DNA of 63,818 nt, the filler included, from Globobulimina sp. (taxonomy: Eukaryota), in assembly GCA_003354225.1 (NCBI GenBank). It is 33 parts of 33 records of this genome, joined end to end, with 100 filler letters (N's around TTAATTAATTAA, not from the genome) between each part and the next. Parts side by side here need not be neighbours in the genome. Positions count along the whole stretch, not along the records: positions 48,433 to 50,268 come from PIVH01011395.1; 32 more parts are not named here. One strand, given 5' to 3'. The notes under the pieces are model-generated. The model made no database searches, was not told where the DNA came from, and saw only the letters and a list, made by a program, of their open reading frames with translations. The position numbers and the translations under genes were made by a program. Shown here in pieces: positions 1-52,142 of this stretch (position 1 is the first letter of the stretch; every line of letters begins with the position of its first letter).

Positions 1-1304
1 GTTTCTTCAAATTATACCTCAAATTATAATGCCAATATGACAGCTGCTCAAAATGTAAACAATCCAATGTTTAATAACAGAGCGATGGTGAACAATAGTA
101 ACAATCCATTTAAATATCAAAATCCTACGCAAACAACCGTTTCGTTAGAAAATTATAATTATCGTGACATACATTGTAATAATATGAATAATATGAACAA
201 TGTGACGAATATTAATCGATTAAAAATTGAGAGTACCTCAGCCGCAGCAGTCACAGTCCCAGTCGTACCACAACGAATAAGCACTACAAGTATTAGTACC
301 AAAACTAAATTTGGATGTTTACGAAATATAGCAAATATATCAATTGCTAATAACAATAATAAAATAAGTAATATTAATTATAATAATATTAATATGAGTT
401 CACTATCACCGATATCCGCAAATAGTAATCACAGTAATCATAGCTGTCATAGTCACAGCCATAGCCATAGCCATAGTATTCATTCTCCGCTATCTCCCAT
501 ATGCATATCGCCCAGATCGCCCCCTAAATTAATAGCCACCAAATCTGCGTCGAGTATTAACAGTAATACGTCAAATAAGTCCAGGTCATCCTCCTTATCC
601 TCGATTAGTTTATCATCTGCAAATATGCGTAAATATAAATGTGATCGTTGTATGAAATCATTTAAACACAAATCGAATTTAAAAATTCATCAAATTATTC
701 ATACTGAAAATGCATTGTCGTGTTCATTTTGTTCGAAAAAATTTGCCAGAAAATCCAATTTAAGACAACATTTAAGAGTTCATACAGATGAAAGGTATGT
801 GAATTTGCATAATTTGCACTCTGTGTTTGAATTGTACTGTATTTGTTGTGTGTTGTTTTTCCTTTTCAGACCATATGAATGTCAACATTGTAAAAGACGG
901 TTTAAACAGACTCATAGGTTTGTTTTTTGCGTCGACGTCTAGTCAAATGTTTATGTATTAACATCTATTTTGTACGTTGTTAGTTTAAAGGATCATATCC
1001 GAACTCATACCGGTGAGAGACCATTCCAATGTGAATTTTGTCCAAAAGCATTTAAAGTGAAACATAATTTAGTGGCACATCGAAGATTGCATAGTTTAGT
1101 TACTGTTTATTGCTGTATACAGTGTATTAATACATGCAGTATATAGCTGGAGAAAGGCCATTTGAGTGTGACCGATGTCCAAAAGCGTTTGCATCAAAGT
1201 CTTCATTAAACGGACATTGTAAAAAACTTCATCCTGTGTTTTGGCCACAAGCAACCCACGAAAAACAAGAAAAAGTACAAACTGAAAATGAAAATGATAA
1301 ATAA
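1..1304 (+). CDS. C2H2 (Kruppel-type) zinc-finger protein, 5 fingers, N/S/H-rich N-terminus, probably 5'-partial; introns 795-869, 918-983, 1094-1146
   Basis: CxxC..HxxxH repeats with HTDERPY and HTGERPF linkers are restored in frame by three GT-AG introns; TAA at 1302-1304. Confidence 0.92.
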
Positions 1305-46697: not shown

Positions 46698-47816
46698 TTA
46701 TTTATCAAACGCCAACAACAAAGCATTTATCTTTGTAACAATATCAGTTTCTAGCAACGGTACACTTGTGTGGATTGTATGATTGCTTTGTAGTTTGTGG
46801 ATTGTTTTGTGATGCTTAATGATATTATTATTATTATCATAAAATGCCATTATTAGTATCTCAACATAAATCGTCATTTGCTCGTATTTTTGCAACTCAT
46901 CAAATGAGAACAGCTTATCATTACTCCAATAAAATCTTGCCTTCTTTACAGTAAATATATATTCTACGCATGATTCTATATTTGGTGTCTTGCATATTAT
47001 CTTACATTTTGTATGGATTTTAGAAACCCTTTGAGGAAAATAACACATTTGAAGCAAGATATCAAAATAACCATTGTATCTCCTTCTGTTTCTACCATTT
47101 GGTGCTACCCGCAAACACCACATATTTTCATAAATGTTTGACTCGAACCTCTTTCCTGAATGTGCAAATTTCATCCGTTCCATGCACAGATTGTTAATAT
47201 TCCATTCAAATGACACAAAGCGTTTTTTAAACCAGTGGTTGCATGGTGAGATTGCAAGATGTTGAATAATGGAATTATTTGTACAATCAATATGTTGTAT
47301 CACTTCAATTTCCACTGTAAAAGTTAACACATTTAAATGTTTAATCTCTTCCAAACATAAACAATAATCTGACCATCCTTTACTGTCATCAACCATATAT
47401 ATGCTCATATTGGTGTAACTTGAAAACGATTCGTGACAATACATTCTTCGGCAGACTACAATCTTACTGGTTGGTAATGGCACGGATAATAATTTCAAAA
47501 ATAATGCAAATGAGCCAGTATCTCCATGTCCAAAACCATTGGGCAAAGCATGGAGTTGCCATTTCAATGAAGCCATTTTGAATTTGTTGGATTGGAATTG
47601 TTTTCTTCTCCGAGAATTTATCATTTTTTGTAACAGATTTCGTTTAATGGTCCATGTGTATTTGCCGTAATGTAAATTAAAATGATAACCGAGAAATCGT
47701 TGGATTGCATGTTTAATCTCTGATGGAATGTATAATACGATGCCAATATGACATTGGATATACCCATGCACGATCAACATGCTTCTTTTGTCACACGTAT
47801 TGAATAATGTGATCAT
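46698..47816 (-). CDS. Tandem MATH/TRAF-domain protein with an N-terminal F-box-like motif
   Basis: Two units: YTWTI...FQS..F...KWQL...PNG...G...LFL and FEWNI...FES...WCL...PNG. N-terminal LIVHGYI...IPSEI. Start codon uncertain. Confidence 0.75.
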   Translation of the reverse strand: MITLFNTCDKRSMLIVHGYIQCHIGIVLYIPSEIKHAIQRFLGYHFNLHYGKYTWTIKRNLLQKMINSRRRKQFQSNKFKMASLKWQLHALPNGFGHGDTGSFALFLKLLSVPLPTSKIVVCRRMYCHESFSSYTNMSIYMVDDSKGWSDYCLCLEEIKHLNVLTFTVEIEVIQHIDCTNNSIIQHLAISPCNHWFKKRFVSFEWNINNLCMERMKFAHSGKRFESNIYENMWCLRVAPNGRNRRRYNGYFDILLQMCYFPQRVSKIHTKCKIICKTPNIESCVEYIFTVKKARFYWSNDKLFSFDELQKYEQMTIYVEILIMAFYDNNNNIIKHHKTIHKLQSNHTIHTSVPLLETDIVTKINALLLAFDK

Positions 47817-48555
47817 GTGATCATGTGTAGCTCTGCAACTTGTACAAAAAACTGTAAAGTTGACAAAACTGAAAACATTATTTACATTCATGTTGTGCAC
47901 AATTGTTATATTTCACGGAGTAGCACAAAACAGCATCTCCTAAGACTGTATAGTTATCTTTTTTAAAATTCGCAACATATATACAGTTATATTAAAACTA
48001 GTCATTCTGAAAACAGTGATTGCGAAATCCGAGAAAGTATTTAATTTCTAAATTAACTAATAAATATAACACGCGCACATTTATTTATTGTACATATTAC
48101 GAAGTACCCAAAAGAAAAATTAAGTACGTAAATATATTTAAACATTACAGATTAATTATTAAATAGAATACTATTAAACAAATTTAATGAATACTGATAA
48201 TACACTGGTGATATATTTTTAATGTCATTTAATATATCAATTACTTTCATAATAATCGTTTGTTGTTTTTTATTTTGCATCGCCACATCGCTATACGTAT
48301 CAGATTTAGATTGCAACAGCGCCATTAATTCTNNNNNNNNNNNNNNNNNNNNNNNNNNNNNNNNNNNNNNNNNNNNTTAATTAATTAANNNNNNNNNNNN
48401 NNNNNNNNNNNNNNNNNNNNNNNNNNNNNNNNTCACGGCCCCGGAAACTGAGTGTTGATGCTATGCAAAGTTGATAAGTTTTTTACTGTGTTTTTAGTCA
48501 AAACCACTTCAGTTACTTCATCAATCCATCCTCGCCCATCAATCAATTAACCAAC

Positions 48556-50010
48556 ATGCGAATTATTTTCATCCATAGCGGCAAATACTTTTTTAAAGAG
48601 TTAGGACCTCACTACGGCCCATTGATCAAACACTCCATGAAATTGCTTCCAATGTATGTCCATTTACAACAAATACAAGTCACAAAGCATAAAAAGCATA
48701 CACTTAAAAGCGAGATCTATTTACGTGCAAATACGAAAGAAAAAAACAAATACCGATCCATCCAATCTTTACCAACTGGCTGCATAATCGGCGTGGCATT
48801 AATCGATGCATCATATTGGTTTGCAGCCAAACACTTATCTTCGCCATGGAGTCATGGTCCATATTGCTATCATATCCGCGATGCATTCCGCGTGCCATCG
48901 GCCATTGCATGCCGCGGTAACATGGGTCTCTGGAAAATAAGCAATGGCATCCAACGAAAAATACAATCCATGGCATGCGTCATGGATAAAATCAATGAAT
49001 GGCGGCATACTTATAATATCAATGAGGAATGCAATATTTACTCTGCTTTAACTATCATGCAACCGTTCGCAGAGTGCATTATTCGAAGAATAAAAGACAT
49101 TGAAAATAGGGGACAAAAGGTGTTCAAATTAAGTGCAAATGACGGCGTATTTGAAGGTTGCCGATTTTGCATAAAACGTAGTGAAAAAACAGTGATTGAT
49201 TATGTAAAATATGGGCAACAGTTTGCAATAAGTCCGCAGCATGAAACTATCCCCAAATATATGGCACAGACTGATTTTAAATATCATCGCTCTGCGTCGC
49301 TTCTGCGATGTCAATGTGGCAGAAATAAACGCAGAAAAAAGAGGATATTTAAGGAAGATATCAATGAAAAGCCGCAGAGGAAACGGAAGAAGGTAACAAT
49401 GAAACCATTGCATGAATTGCTAAATTATGAACGTAGAAAACCAATAAAACGAATAAAAAAAAGGAAATTAAATGCATATAATTACTACGGCGACGATTTT
49501 AAAATAGAAAAGAGAAAAACTTATAATTTGCGAGGTGATAAGGCACAGAAAATGAAGTGTTTTCAGGCGTTAATAAATATGGGTTTTGATGAAGAAAAAG
49601 CAAAATGTGCATCGGACAGATGTAAGGATATTGGCCGTGCTCTTAATTATTTGGAGAGGTTGGAAAAAGTGCGAAAAAGTAAAACTCCGCAATTGGGTTA
49701 TTCTGAGTCATTGCCGTTGAGTGCGAAACGAAAACGGAAACTGGAGATAGATGATGTTGATGAGGAGAGAATGGATCATCATAATAATAAGAAGAAGAAA
49801 AGGAGAATGAGTGAGGGTGATATTGATGAGGAATATGAATTAATTAAAGCATTGCGGCAAAGCAATGTGACATATAATGCTGAGAGACAGCGTCGAGAGA
49901 ATGAGAGTGATTGCTATATTGATGATGGATGGAATAGAAACAATGAAAAGAATAAAAATAAGAAATTGTCGTCGTCAATGGTGAGCAAAATACCTCGGAG
50001 GAGGTGTTGA
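48556..50010 (+). CDS. ASCH-domain protein (permuted motif order) with basic NLS region, UBA and UIM; 5' end possibly incomplete
   Basis: IFIHSGK; LPTGCIIG; SPW..GPYCY...RGNMGLWKI; then ALTIMQPFA..I...KDIENR; UBA ALINMGFDEEKA...ALNYL; UIM EEYELIKALRQS. Confidence 0.8.
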   Translation: MRIIFIHSGKYFFKELGPHYGPLIKHSMKLLPMYVHLQQIQVTKHKKHTLKSEIYLRANTKEKNKYRSIQSLPTGCIIGVALIDASYWFAAKHLSSPWSHGPYCYHIRDAFRVPSAIACRGNMGLWKISNGIQRKIQSMACVMDKINEWRHTYNINEECNIYSALTIMQPFAECIIRRIKDIENRGQKVFKLSANDGVFEGCRFCIKRSEKTVIDYVKYGQQFAISPQHETIPKYMAQTDFKYHRSASLLRCQCGRNKRRKKRIFKEDINEKPQRKRKKVTMKPLHELLNYERRKPIKRIKKRKLNAYNYYGDDFKIEKRKTYNLRGDKAQKMKCFQALINMGFDEEKAKCASDRCKDIGRALNYLERLEKVRKSKTPQLGYSESLPLSAKRKRKLEIDDVDEERMDHHNNKKKKRRMSEGDIDEEYELIKALRQSNVTYNAERQRRENESDCYIDDGWNRNNEKNKNKKLSSSMVSKIPRRRC

Positions 50011-50368
50011 CAATTTAGAGTCAATTATTTAAGGGTTTTTTTGAAATGGTCTTATCCCATTGGATAACCCACCGAGTCAGTTGCATATATGCACACTTTG
50101 TATTTTTTCCAAGCCGTTTGTGAACCAACGAGCACTTTGGAATTATCAGCTACTCGCGTGTCAAATGCTGTTGTCACACAACATCACAAAACAATTGTCA
50201 AAAGTCGTGAAATTATAATATATATATATATATACTAAATATATATACACTTCTTTTGCGATTCTGTCNNNNNNNNNNNNNNNNNNNNNNNNNNNNNNNN
50301 NNNNNNNNNNNNTTAATTAATTAANNNNNNNNNNNNNNNNNNNNNNNNNNNNNNNNNNNNNNNNNNNN

Positions 50369-50981: not shown

Positions 50982-52142
50982 TCATAATCTTGATATAATT
51001 TGTTTGGCGTCTCTCCAAACCGTACGTAATATGCCAGGATCTGGTTTATTATTTAATATACTTTCAATTCTATCAATATAATATTTATTCAATTTATTCG
51101 CAGCAGCAATAGAACCCATCGATTGTTGTAATTGATATACTTTTGTTCCTCCCAATATGCACACAGTGACATGTCTATTCTTAATGACCCATCCAATGGC
51201 TAACTCAGCCACACTGATATTCAATTCGTCAGCAATTCTCATTAATTTTTCAACTTTGACCAATTTATCCTCTGTGATATATTTCGAATGTCCTACAAAC
51301 GAACCTAATAAATTCTTACCACTCAAACGCCCATTTCTTGGCATTTGTTTATTATATTTGCCACTTAAAACACCTCTGTCCAATACATTCCATATAGTTG
51401 TTCCAAAATTATATGGGTCTTCAAAAATATCCAAATACTCCCTCTCCAATACATCTCTTGAAAACATGGAATAAAGTGGCTGTTCTATCACAGGCGGCAT
51501 CAAGTTATTTAATTTTGCGATGTAGTATGCTTCAACAATCTGTGTTGGTTTCCACATTGACGTTCCCCAATGGAATGCATAGCCTCTATCTATCATTGCA
51601 TTGAATGAGCGTACAATTTCTTCAATGCTGGTTAATGGATCGGGTCGATGCGCATATACAATATCTACATATTCCAATTGCATTCGTTTTAATGAATCAC
51701 GGATTCCTTCAAATAAATGTTTTCGAGTTAAACCCATTTCATTTACACCAACTTGTGATCGATCAGGACCCAATTTGAGATTCCCTGCTTGAGGGCCCCA
51801 ATACTATAAAAATGTATATGTTTACGTGTTTGGACACATACATTTATGCACTGCATGGATACATACAATTTTTGTTGTTAATACTAAATCAGAACGTCGC
51901 CATAATTTCGGATCTTCTCTTTGTAGTATTTTTAAAGCTTTCCCAAAATTTAGTTCAGCTAAACCACGAATTGGGTTACCATACGCTTCAGCATTGTCAA
52001 AAAAACTAACATAAATACATAAATATAATTGGAAAGGGCAATAATATGCATGTGCAAAATTAAAAGTTAAAATTCTTAACTTTACACCATATGCACGTAC
52101 ACATCTTAATAATTCTAAGGTTTTATCGACAGTGTCATATGT
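50982..52142 (-). CDS. Aldo-keto reductase, voltage-gated K+ channel beta-subunit-like, 5'-partial; introns 52006-52080 and 51804-51866
   Basis: Spliced GVNFFDNAEAYG; RRSDLVLTTKIYWG; GLTRKH...SLKRMQLEYVDIVYAHRPD; WGTS.W; EQP.Y. Confidence 0.92.

Follow-up and report, generated by a model that had tools for sequence, protein, structure and literature searches.

The open reading frame at 48556..50010 (+ strand) of a Globobulimina sp. genomic window, the whole stretch of 63,818 nucleotides that was analysed, encodes a protein whose N-terminal 190 residues are a genuine circular permutation of the six-stranded ASCH (PUA-like) barrel, and the permutation is family-wide. We put the probability of this identity, together with an architecture in which the real permuted ASCH domain is followed by a Cys/His cluster, basic stretches, a UBA-like bundle and a UIM-like helix, at about 0.85. 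The ASCH fold itself is known; what appears to be new, as judged from the literature searched, is the permuted form with a UBA-like/UIM-like tail, which is missed by Pfam's ASCH model.

Gene model and layout of the locus

The window consists of 33 unrelated pieces of ~1.84 kb each, separated by 32 spacers (N44-TTAATTAATTAA-N44), and the gene's own piece spans 48433..50268. Since the pieces are unrelated, the neighbouring "context" of the gene is without meaning. Read unspliced, the ORF encodes 484 aa. The gene is composed of two exons and one 57-nt in-frame intron within 48556-50010, and its features are given below; every motif noted in a preceding sequence-only reading of this DNA was found where that reading had placed it.

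48556..48653, +: exon 1, with the start codon and the new N-terminus, which is strand beta3 (MRIIFIHSGK, 48556-48585), then a helix at aa 17-28
48654..48710, +: in-frame intron of 57 nt (GTATGT...AAAAG), from contig junctions and the 19-residue insertion
48711..48939, +: rest of the barrel core, with a helix at aa 60-65, beta4 LPTGCIIGVALID, beta5 PWSHGPYCYHIRD... and beta6 RGNMGLWKI
48769-48792, +: motif LPTGCIIG
48844-48870, +: motif PWSHGPYCY
48910-48939, +: motif CRGNMGLWKI
48943..49041, +: linker from the old C-terminus to the old N-terminus, with helices at aa 130-137 and 140-153 and with W149
49045..49110, +: relocated beta1-alpha1-beta2 of ASCH, ALTIMQPFAECIIRRIKDIENR, including the octapeptide with K180, E183 and R185
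49159..49317, +: Cys/His cluster CRFC...H...CQC, a putative zinc site, from conserved residues (CRFC 49159-49170, H 49285-49287, CQC 49309-49317)
49318..49545, +: probably disordered stretch rich in Lys and Arg, holding the NLS-like clusters KRRKKR, RKRKK and KRIK (pattern scan only)
49546..49665, +: UBA-like three-helix bundle with an MGF loop (sub-threshold Pfam, PDB profile, model, Foldseek)
49726-49818, +: second basic cluster (KRKRK, KKKKRR), 5' of the UIM-like helix
49825..49878, +: UIM-like helix DEEYELIKALRQS (pattern, Pfam UIM_2, model)
49990..50010, +: C-terminal IPRRRC motif and stop codon, shared with relatives

In a 901-nt contig from run X4 (99+% identical, library kind unrecorded), 48653 is joined to 48711, leaving out a segment with GT..AG ends, and the 57 nt correspond exactly to a 19-residue insertion of the window ORF relative to its relatives P0001/P0002. 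The contigs of another relative (~90% identical) in X6/X7, which are RNA by guess only, are also devoid of the intron. ORF residues ~33-52 are spurious and intron-encoded (19 residues), and since the intron is in-frame and 57 nt long, the mature protein has ~465 aa, not 484. The comparison between the window and the ~90%-identical relative placed 27 of the 40 listed differences at third codon positions (p ~1e-5), and the reading frame is under coding constraint.

The ASCH segments occur in swapped order

We built a canonical-ASCH profile from 67 canonical ASCH proteins (159 positions) and compared it with all 973 six-frame stretches of at least 30 aa in the whole window, in which it matched only ORF 48556..50010. 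The whole-ORF match had an E-value of 1e-33, far beyond chance, and consisted of two matches in swapped order, namely aa 52-140 of the window protein to profile positions 57-142 (iE 5.6e-23) and aa 162-190 to positions 7-35 (iE 8.3e-11). The homology to canonical ASCH thus extends over the whole domain (profile 7-142), but the segment that is N-terminal in canonical order, beta1-alpha1-beta2, is located at aa 163-185, after beta3-beta6. In relatives the first match runs from residue 3-6, aligned to profile positions 42-43, and the second covers positions 5-38 without overlap; since the coverage amounts to 5-38 plus 42-152, exactly one domain is present. A phmmer search of PDB sequences gave the same picture: 4 of 4 matches were ASC-1/TRIP4 ASCH chains, again as two swapped stretches, and the 49045-49110 segment aligned to residues 4-25 of the TRIP4 ASCH chains. 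The second profile match reaches positions 46-55 in P0001, P0009 and P0010. As a side observation, an "xFRLH" stretch after ENR in some relatives might be a relic of a duplicated beta3; we take it as a hint only.

The curated model gave a different outcome. Running Pfam ASCH (PF04266) on the native sequence, as the sequence-only reading had proposed, yielded nothing at E up to 10, whether for the window protein or for P0001 and P0002. Of nine family proteins searched with it, one matched (E 0.091), and another 10 gave no match at E up to 0.01. PF04266 misses the family because the permutation breaks collinearity with the model.

The chain runs through beta3, beta4-beta6, the C-terminal helix and a new helical linker with an invariant Trp, and then into beta1-alpha1-beta2. 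The old termini are thereby joined and the new termini lie in the beta2-beta3 surface loop, and the relocated segment brings in the QPF(A) motif and the K-x-x-E-x-R octapeptide. Both the alignments and the models predict that the barrel and its conserved cleft are rebuilt intact.

The relocated segment is predicted to complete the barrel

The fold of ASCH is a six-stranded beta-barrel, as described in PMC5615036. We modelled the domain with AlphaFold2 from the unspliced ORF, the intron-coded loop being the low-confidence part (pLDDT 55-71), and obtained one compact domain with six confident strands (pLDDT 89.8, pTM 0.88). The new N-terminal strand beta3 (E2-13) had a pLDDT of 91-97, the core strands were E76-88, E103-118 and E124-127, and the linker helices H130-137 and H140-153 scored 96-98. 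The relocated part was modelled as E163-169, H171-176 and E182-185, with pLDDT 95-98 over aa 160-190.

ASCH structures came out on top when the model was compared with solved structures. The top 8 Foldseek matches were all TRIP4/ASC-1 ASCH (E 0.02-0.87), and VIA-align against 48,161 chains gave 7 chains with Z >=2, the top 4 being ASCH structures (Z 5.1, rmsd 4.0, 108 aligned; Z 4.8, 4.8, 108; Z 4.4, 3.3, 105; Z 2.5, 3.5, 79). The model thus has a six-strand barrel with flanking helices, with fold-match scores that are moderate (best Z 5.1, Foldseek E 0.02) and that cover the collinear two thirds, the aligners being sequential. In all of the top 4, residues ~36-41 (or equivalent) of the solved chain pair with model residue 1, and these residues lie just after the beta2-beta3 loop. 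The corresponding loop of ZmASCH, Arg33-Leu40, is counted in PMC5615036 among the regions that vary most.

Complex prediction of aa 1-150 with aa 155-200 as separate partners gave a score of 0.81 versus 0.01 for the best control; among solved complexes, 51 of 78 attained this mark, as did 2 of 108 mismatched pairs. The test used one chain split in two and single sequences, and with ASCH structures already solved the score may reflect a resemblance to them, which is, however, the very point at issue. The runs shared at least 79% of contacts, with partner pLDDT at or above 67. Residue 164 contacted 125-128, residues 181-184 contacted 103-107, and the helix 172-176 contacted 77-81 and 110-112, with residues 1-12 also in the docking interface. 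The relocated segment is therefore predicted, by modelling, to pack into the barrel. The claim that 49045-49110 completes the barrel is supported by the profile match at 7-35, the pLDDT of 95-98 and the docking score, and that of a circular permutation by the swapped profile matches, the model and the alignment of ASCH chains from residue 1.

The permuted order is shared by a family of relatives

A set of 151 proteins, consisting of the best 150 of 264 matches and the window protein, was classed by the order of the ASCH segments: 80 were canonical and 40 permuted; the C-part alone was present in 23 and the N-part alone in 6, and 2 had neither. The 40 permuted proteins include the window protein and a tandem-like fragment, P0093, so that the permuted order is found in 38 other database proteins among the best 150 of 264 matches. 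Those members that carry a name are proteins from foraminiferal transcriptomes or MMETSP transcripts. Homologs with the same order, which the sequence-only reading had suggested to look for in rhizarian transcriptomes, thus do occur in transcriptome data, P0001 and P0003 being transcriptome-derived orthologues. Pattern matches were also seen in metagenome contigs (A1, P0036) and viral contigs (A1), among which no relative was confirmed. In a tree on the shared C-part (92 columns), 30 permuted rows fell on one side versus 80 canonical rows (SH-aLRT 99). W149 of the linker is kept in at least 90% of 39 aligned sequences. In other family members a SAM or kinase domain stands in place of the tail, and SAP-linked members were found as well.

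That the unusual order was made by a chimeric or rearranged contig has a probability close to nil in our judgement. The piece is short and the assembly highly fragmented, as such an artefact would have it, but the contigs from runs X1 (covering 48441-49308) and X4 (covering 48711-49583), which come from different studies, are 99+% identical to the window and have unrecorded library kinds, each carry both ASCH segments in one record, and the same order recurs in the 38 independent database proteins.

The other way to lose the permutation is a 5'-cut gene model, which the sequence-only reading had itself named as its refutation: a normal ASCH domain with beta1-alpha1-beta2 on an upstream exon off the piece, followed by a truncated second copy. 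There is room for this, inasmuch as only 123 nt lie between the ATG and the end of the piece, and the gene has at least one intron. The frame is open from 48478, and AGs behind pyrimidine runs (ends 48497 and 48512) are possible acceptors. A tandem-like ASCH fragment, P0093, also exists elsewhere. However, a QPxA/KxxExR segment was absent from the three forward frames of these 123 nt, as the sequence-only reading had stated, and the chain starts of the relatives speak against a missing exon. Among the 38 permuted database proteins, 17 begin with M-R-[ILV] at the same strand beta3 and 8 more within 27 residues of it (7 after 3-27 extra residues and 1 as MLLTIHSG), the remainder being 2 with an internal module and 11 that begin inside the domain; the transcriptome-derived orthologues P0001 and P0003 also start at beta3. 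None of the 39 permuted proteins (38 plus the window protein) had an N-part motif upstream of the module, including the two internal-module proteins with 315 and 1860 residues before it. In-frame stop codons, TGA TAA at 48472-48477, stand 27-28 codons 5' of the ATG. Moreover, the intron-less X6 contig of the ~90%-identical relative extends 62 nt upstream of 48542, is homologous and collinear with the window's genomic leader, and shows no splicing at the counterparts of the two candidate acceptors; in our own reading, a TAG stands in frame 13 codons ahead of the ATG. Lastly, profile positions 5-38 plus 42-152 make up exactly one domain, and the model is single and compact (pTM 0.88). We therefore consider the 5'-cut model very unlikely.

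A 28-nt mini-intron at 48470-48497 was also considered and rejected, being unsupported and read through in the homologous region by the relative's contig. The contigs listed for X4 leave 48496-48619 uncovered, and a 67-nt X4 fragment lies on 48434-48470 and then runs into adapter; both are uninformative on the 5' end.

With the permutation as the preferred reading, we propose that it would have arisen by tandem duplication of a bacterial/phage-type ASCH domain, followed by loss of both outer ends, and probably once, in the ancestor of the permuted eukaryotic family. The evidence that points to duplication and truncation is one bacterial-looking fragment, P0093.

A Cys/His cluster and a basic, UBA-like and UIM-like tail follow the barrel

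Downstream of the barrel, C202, R203 and C205 of the Cys/His cluster are invariant in 9 sequences and C202/C205/H244/C252/C254 in 3 sequences, with pLDDT 83-91 in the model; the wider family has a shorter form, CRFC-x(6-9)-C-x(3-4)-H. We regard the cluster as a putative zinc site. The following Lys/Arg-rich region varies in length between relatives, with a 12-nt in-frame difference at 49319. At the C-terminal end, IPRRRC is common to the window protein and P0001, and RR(R/S) is kept in P0002, P0004 and P0008.

The sequence-only reading had described UBA and UIM modules in this tail. UBA-like and UIM-like elements are indeed present, but each stays below curated thresholds in the window sequence. 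Pfam UBA (PF00627) scored 12.9 bits for the window protein (E 0.1) against a cut-off of 22.4, and at E up to 1 it matched 4 of 9 relatives, the best being the orthologue P0001 with 22.0 bits. A family profile searched against PDB gave 12 matches, 8 of which were UBA domains (E 0.044-2.4). The region was modelled as three helices (pLDDT 87-91), and M22 and G23 of the MGF/MGY loop were invariant in a 7-sequence alignment, so that both the three-helix bundle and the loop of a UBA domain are found in model and alignment. Foldseek aligned UBA structures with rmsd 1.5-2.0 A over 36-49 columns (E 0.4-3.5), among them the UBA domains of Ede1, HUWE1 and hHR23A (rmsd 1.5-1.8 A, 36-38 columns, target TM 0.63-0.68, E 0.8-3.5).

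The UIM consensus is an acidic run, then phi-x-x-A-phi-x-x-S on a single helix. The window protein, P0001/P0151, P0004 and P0008 all carry the pattern acidic-phi-x-x-A-phi-x-x-S in homologous position, and P0003 and P0038 lack it. The pattern thus persists in 4 of 6 orthologue clusters despite diverging flanks. Across the 37,980 residues of all proteins retrieved it occurs 8 times, 5 of them in the window protein and its relatives. Pfam UIM_2 matched 1 of 9 (E 0.086), and the region was modelled as a single helix (pLDDT 60-67) within a C-terminal model that was poor overall (pLDDT 64, pTM 0.31).

These lines of evidence, from sequence patterns and models, are sub-threshold but convergent, and support the presence of UBA and UIM elements; on balance we favour ubiquitin binding by the tail. 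A generic UBA-like or RuvA-domain-III-like bundle, followed by a chance acidic amphipathic helix that happens to fit the UIM pattern, would account for the sub-threshold matches, for the RuvA domain III structures in the top Foldseek rows, for the P0003 and P0038 clusters with a UBA-like bundle but without the UIM pattern, and for the family members that have SAM or kinase instead of the tail. This explanation is doubtful in view of the bona fide UBA domains among the PDB profile matches (8 of 12), the invariant MGF/MGY loop in the 7 sequences, and the recurrence of the UIM pattern at a homologous site where the flanks have diverged. If the tail does bind ubiquitin, its flexible UBA/UIM part would carry the cleft, in the nucleus or on ribosomes, to assemblies that bear a ubiquitin mark.

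Conserved cleft residues and possible activities

The octapeptide R-I-K-D-I-E-N-R is located at aa 178-185, and its K180/E183/R185 align with the TRIP4 octapeptide. It fits G-x-K-x-x-(E/T)-x-R except for its first position, which is Arg here but Gly in several relatives. At least 90% of 39 family sequences conserve K180, N184 and P170, and the 9 closer sequences show no variation at E183 or R185. The cleft is a probable nucleic-acid binder, with RNA or a modified base as its likeliest ligand. It might in addition work as an N4-acylcytidine-type amidohydrolase, a tentative suggestion based on its having retained the Lys/Glu pair on which other ASCH proteins depend. In a preprint (bioRxiv 10.64898/2026.02.27.708502), the octapeptide Lys and Glu are reported as essential for tRNA ac4C deacetylation by three GKER-type ASCH proteins, TthASCH, EOLA1 and TRIP4_ASCH, and titles and abstract openings of other papers report EOLA1 and YqfB as ac4C deacetylases.

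One may go further and see the permuted barrel as an enzyme first, an N4-acetyl/acyl-cytidine (or related) RNA amidohydrolase rather than a passive reader or adaptor, with the tail controlling stability or location. The conserved residues and the deacetylase reports would be in line with this, but a binder would be expected to conserve its cleft just as well, and the same preprint notes that ZmASCH, TRIP4 and EOLA1 did not hydrolyse ac4C nucleoside in earlier work. TRIP4 ASCH was moreover solved with bound dsDNA, as its PDB entry titles indicate, and ZmASCH is reported in PMC5615036 as a weak ssRNA nuclease. We thus consider the enzyme-first reading unlikely, and a nuclear ASCH reader or eraser that may be recruited by ubiquitin remains our working description.

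A more far-reaching scenario, which we think improbable as a whole, would have a single polypeptide do what the RQT/ASCC system splits between TRIP4/Rqt4 and ASCC2/Cue3: the UBA/UIM elements would steer the ASCH domain to ubiquitin-marked ribosomes or chromatin, where it would bind and possibly deacylate RNA (ac4C-type erasure). In that scenario the permutation would have arisen to free the barrel C-terminus for tails, and the SAM-, kinase- and SAP-linked family would form a protist toolkit of targeted modified-base readers and erasers.

Significance

ASCH domains have lately moved from "predicted RNA binder" to candidate N4-acetylcytidine erasers, and they now also figure in the pathways of ribosome collision and DNA damage. 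The clean, monophyletic permutation explains how curated models could miss a whole eukaryotic family, in which the best 150 of 264 matches include at least 38 clusters (at 50% identity). The permuted family offers a natural example of how permuted domains may come about by duplication and truncation; it also shows that the beta2-beta3 loop tolerates new termini, which would be useful for split or permuted ASCH sensors. Through the fusion to UBA-like and UIM-like elements, ubiquitin signals may be connected with the reading or erasing of nucleic acids by an ASCH domain, and this connection can be tested directly. The sequence-only reading had not recognised the architecture, and a permuted ASCH is indeed undescribed in the literature searched, which consisted mostly of titles and abstract openings; the protein is not unique, however, but one member of a family.

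Comparison with known systems

The same kind of event, in which a core strand was moved to the N-terminus, is described for a permuted clade of N6A-methyltransferases in PMC4738411, though in an unrelated (Rossmann) fold. In that paper, permutation concerns the methyltransferases and ASCH is treated only as a canonical reader domain.

Within the superfamily, the YqfB-type amidohydrolases (GK[T/S]R octapeptide) have their catalytic Lys at the equivalent octapeptide position, as stated in bioRxiv 10.64898/2026.02.27.708502, but they carry Thr for Glu in the octapeptide, are ~110 aa long and have canonical order, and they were absent among the family-search matches. EOLA1/CXorf40A, a eukaryotic ASCH-only protein, resembles the model in structure (Z 4.4 and rmsd 3.3 A over 105 aligned residues, with model 1..145 on chain 36..156), and differs in its canonical order and in having no tail.

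The GKER-type bacterial and phage ASCH proteins (~140-160 aa; ZmASCH, PDB 5guq) are the best canonical sequence matches (E 1e-9 to 1e-5), and the protein-atlas neighbours are phage clusters, some with PF04266. They have in common with the window protein the six-stranded barrel and the motifs QP(W/F)A, G/x-K-x-x-E-N-R, (I/L)H(A/S)GK, LPxGxI(I/V)G, PWxxGP(Y/F) and RGxxG(L/I)W. Their order is canonical, however, whereas in the window protein the first 38 profile positions come after the last, and they are without the invariant-Trp linker helix, the Cys/His cluster and the tail.

TRIP4/ASC-1 (Rqt4 in yeast) provides the best solved-structure match, with the octapeptide K/E/R aligned, and resembles the window protein in being eukaryotic and in coupling ASCH to ubiquitin reading. 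TRIP4 has an N-terminal zinc finger region, and a TRIP4-type zinc finger was not found by Pfam in the window protein. The ASCH domain of TRIP4 is C-terminal and in canonical order, whereas that of the window protein is N-terminal and permuted, and the sequence similarity to TRIP4 is far weaker than that to bacterial-type ASCH (E ~0.5 for a single sequence versus 1e-9). Ubiquitin reading in TRIP4/Rqt4 goes through other domains or a partner subunit, not through a UBA and UIM in the same chain. According to PMC9831982, Rqt4 binds K63 chains through its N-terminal domain and Cue3 through its CUE domain, with disorder in Rqt4 serving to widen the search. The window protein is not an orthologue of TRIP4/Rqt4, but the working logic that we propose for it would be that of Rqt4/TRIP4 with Cue3/ASCC2, and it may work like TRIP4/Rqt4.

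Gene structure and the 5' end

The window contains 32 spacers, each reading N44-TTAATTAATTAA-N44, which divide its 63,818 bases into 33 unrelated pieces, each of about 1.84 kb (about 1836-1839 nt), and resembles short contigs concatenated in length-sorted order. Since the pieces are unrelated, only the piece holding the gene counts as its context, and neighbourhood across the spacers is meaningless.

Features at and around the locus
46698-47900, minus strand: MATH domain ORF, 400 aa (PF22486, E 1.2e-09, aa 80-139), in the previous piece
48333-48432: spacer
48433..50268: the piece holding the gene
48472-48477: TGA TAA, in the ORF frame upstream
48556..50010, plus strand: ORF encoding 484 aa
48654-48710: 57-nt stretch with GT..AG ends (GTATGT...AAAAG)
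50269-50368: spacer
50982-51773, minus strand: ORF fragment of the aldo/keto reductase family, 263 aa (PF00248, E 3.6e-37, profile 76-290 of 291), in the next piece and cut by that piece's end

Every motif that the sequence-only reading had listed was found in its place in the ORF. Contigs of public sequencing runs were then compared with the locus. A contig of run X1 carries the same form as the window, with the 57 nt retained, and a 901-nt contig of run X4 (a separate study, 99+% identical) joins 48653 to 48711, skipping these 57 nt. The stretch was also absent from contigs of a relative in runs X6 and X7 (mostly under 90% alike), and it is in frame and corresponds exactly to a 19-residue insertion of the window ORF compared with the related database proteins P0001 and P0002. 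The GT..AG gap in X4 and this in-frame match thus give a gene of two exons and a mature protein of about 465 aa. Such a tiny in-frame intron leaves the ORF open, so that an ORF-based reading silently gains 19 residues; similar hidden mini-introns may occur in other long ORFs of the assembly.

As the sequence-only reading had noted, none of the three forward frames in the 123 nt 5' of the ATG contains the ASCH N-terminal motif. The X6 contig runs 62 nt further upstream from 48542 and is recognisably homologous to the genomic leader of the window, indicating that the leader is unspliced there; it bears an in-frame TAG 13 codons ahead of the ATG (read from the 30 letters shown). Separately, a 67-nt X4 contig (depth about 231) covers the opening 37 nt of this piece (48434-48470, G+C richer than its surroundings) and passes the piece end by 11 letters, followed by adapter sequence. 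It may belong to the leader of this gene or to the tail end of an adjacent transcript.

Swapped order of the ASCH segments

A canonical-ASCH profile (159 positions, built from 67 canonical proteins) matched the window protein twice and in reverse order, aa 52-140 to profile positions 57-142 (74.5 bits, iE 5.6e-23) and aa 162-190 to profile positions 7-35 (34.9 bits, iE 8.3e-11), bearing out the swapped order that had been proposed by eye. Where relatives lack the intron-coded insert, their first match starts from residue 3-6 at profile position 42-43, and their second spans profile positions 5-38. The two pieces sum to exactly one ASCH domain, cut at about profile position 38 to 42.

Searched with phmmer against 1.84 billion representative proteins, aa 1-260 had 264 matches at E up to 1e-3, including 40 at E up to 1e-10. 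Among the best 150 of the 264, one kind was collinear with the query over both segments and a second kind, proteins roughly 140-160 aa long that carry QPWA at residues 8-20, matched in two stretches. These 150 and the window protein (n = 151) were classed as 80 canonical (67 of which had trained the profile and match it by construction), 40 permuted, 23 with only the C-part (beta3 to beta6 core), 6 with only the N-part (beta1-alpha1-beta2) and 2 with neither. A sequence search of the PDB returned four matches, all ASC-1/TRIP4 ASCH chains in two swapped stretches (E about 0.5), and a nine-sequence family profile returned 12, of which 4 were ASC-1 ASCH chains (E 0.017-0.025) and 8 were UBA domains. 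Pfam gave a weak UBA alone and no ASCH match on the window protein; its ASCH model misses the permuted family. No description of a permuted ASCH was found in the literature searched. The novelty lies in the topology and the architectures, the fold and motifs being already known.

The N-terminus of permuted proteins

The N-termini of 38 permuted database proteins were surveyed, leaving out the tandem-like P0093. Seventeen start with M-R-[ILV] exactly at strand beta3, 7 have 3-27 additional residues before the beta3 start, and one opens with MLLTIHSG; in 2 the module lies deep within a long chain (from residue 316 in a protein of 668 aa and from residue 1863 in one of 2527 aa), and the remaining 11 begin within the domain as fragments or short calls. 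An upstream QPxA..KxxExR segment, which the sequence-only reading had named as an observation that would refute permutation, was absent ahead of the core in all 39 permuted proteins (window protein counted), and an unfiltered hmmsearch with the canonical profile gave no additional N-part match. The closest relatives are transcriptome-derived and start at strand beta3: P0001 (EukProt; Bolivina argentea and Nonionella stella), 49% identical to the window protein, and P0003, an MMETSP transcript, both keep the permuted order.

Predicted fold

AlphaFold2 modelling of aa 1-260 with a 39-sequence family alignment gave a mean pLDDT of 89.8 and a pTM of 0.88, the intron-coded insert being the sole low-confidence part. 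Six strands were confidently modelled (2-13, 76-88, 103-118, 124-127, 163-169 and 182-185), and the last two are separated by helix 171-176, the arrangement that beta1-alpha1-beta2 demands (pLDDT 95-98 over aa 160-190). The top eight Foldseek matches were all TRIP4/ASC-1 ASCH (E 0.02-0.87, 72-81 columns). VIA-align against 48,161 representative chains gave just 7 that reached Z 2, and ASCH structures took the first four places; the scores are middling, as is expected where the collinear two thirds alone can be aligned.

ASCH structures aligned to the model by VIA-align
8alz_A: Z 5.1, rmsd 4.0, 108 aligned; model 1..145 = 464..580
9kyk_A: Z 4.8, rmsd 4.8, 108 aligned
6kir_A (mouse CXorf40A): Z 4.4, rmsd 3.3, 105 aligned; model 1..145 = 36..156
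5guq_A (ZmASCH): Z 2.5, rmsd 3.5, 79 aligned; model 1..142 = 41..146

The register of these alignments is informative all the same: model residue 1 falls immediately past the beta2-beta3 loop of solved ASCH structures. PMC5615036 places this loop of ZmASCH (Arg33-Leu40) among those regions of the six-stranded barrel that vary the most.

The chain was also split, and aa 155-200 were docked on aa 1-150 along with three controls. The score was 0.81 versus 0.01 for the best control, a pass that may stem from likeness to solved ASCH structures, which is itself the point in question; the mark applied is one that 51 of 78 solved complexes attained, as did 2 of 108 mismatched pairs. Contact agreement between runs was at least 79% and the partner pLDDT at least 67. 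Residue 164 contacts 125-128 (the last core strand), 181-184 contact 103-107, helix 172-176 contacts 77-81 and 110-112, and residues 1-12 lie within the interface. The predictor thus builds the segment encoded by 49045-49110 into the barrel as an integral element, as had been anticipated, and the barrel is predicted to be intact despite the permutation.

Origin of the permutation

In a tree of 92 columns of the shared C-part (junction excluded; one permuted row dropped for too few filled columns), a single branch (SH-aLRT 99, one change) set 30 permuted rows apart from 80 canonical ones, which, given the few columns and canonical rows picked by similarity to the query, is consistent with a single origin of the permuted family and is not proof of it. 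P0093, a GC-rich, bacterial-looking fragment of 182 aa, carries the C-part of one ASCH and, behind it, the N-terminal two thirds of another; this arrangement shows that tandem ASCH genes, the expected intermediate toward circular permutation, exist.

Many members (P0009, P0010, P0013 and others) have x-F-R-L-H right behind ENR, resembling 'LIHA' of canonical beta3. In three proteins this stretch is part of the second profile match (to profile 46-55), and the CRFC..C..W.H cluster comes next. It may be a relic of a duplicated ASCH copy.

Tail modules and coding constraint

The Cys/His cluster CRFC...H...CQC comes after ENR, with C202, R203 and C205 invariant in nine sequences, CRFC-x(6-9)-C-x(3-4)-H as its version in the wider family and a pLDDT of 83-91; it is a putative zinc site. 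Between both halves of this cluster lies aa 207-259, the only part of the query matched by P0007, a long tandem repeat of 1057 aa (E 5e-31, 18 stretches) with no ASCH profile match. P0007 may represent a repeat family derived from this segment or a low-complexity artefact.

The basic clusters KRRKKR, RKRKK, KRIK, KRKRK and KKKKRR are NLS-like by pattern alone. The Pfam UBA score was 12.9 bits for the window protein and 22.0 bits for P0001 (cut-off 22.4), and 4 of 9 relatives match. The region is modelled as three helices (pLDDT 87-91), for which Foldseek gave UBA domains of Ede1, HUWE1, hHR23A, USP5 and UBAP1 along with RuvA domain III, none of them with an E below 0.4. The UIM pattern acidic-phi-x-x-A-phi-x-x-S occurs at the homologous site in 4 of 6 UBA-bearing orthologue clusters, with just three further occurrences in about 36,000 residues of proteins scanned. 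A three-helix UBA-like bundle and a UIM-like helix are predicted features of the tail. Other family members carry SAM (P0002), a protein kinase (P0028) or weak SAP and zinc-finger matches (P0040) as tails, and the P0021 cluster (164 aa) is virtually the permuted domain alone.

The reading frame is under purifying selection. Among the 40 differences from the X6/X7 relative that were counted by codon position, with 57 further ones outside this count, 27 fall at third positions, 9 at first positions and 4 at second positions. Each of the three indels has a length divisible by three and lies within the basic or acidic low-complexity tail (in the relative, 12 nt missing at 49319, 6 nt missing at 49775 and 27 nt added at 49817). 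The tail evolves through length changes and the barrel differs mostly at third codon positions.

Proposed function and comparison with known systems

Segment order, family, intron and coding constraint are demonstrated by the data, whereas the function is inferred. The relocated segment holds the ASCH octapeptide, whose Lys and Glu are required by TthASCH, EOLA1 and TRIP4_ASCH to deacetylate tRNA ac4C according to a preprint (bioRxiv 10.64898/2026.02.27.708502), which also mentions earlier negative results on free ac4C nucleoside. K180, N184 and P170 are kept in at least 90% of the 39 aligned sequences. Because the octapeptide is retained, its Lys and Glu are reportedly essential in other ASCH proteins and these residues are conserved, the cleft is taken as functional. 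It probably binds nucleic acid (a probability of roughly 0.7), and hydrolytic activity is put forward only as a somewhat doubtful possibility.

The tail's disordered basic stretches and its UBA/UIM pair may work by a logic like that of the RQT complex, one component of which, Rqt4, is an ASCH-bearing homologue of TRIP4. In the RQT complex, K63 chains are bound by the N-terminal domain of Rqt4 and Cue3's CUE domain, and the disordered regions of Rqt4 broaden the search area, as stated in PMC9831982. The window protein is not a TRIP4 orthologue, however, because its ASCH domain belongs to the bacterial or phage type.
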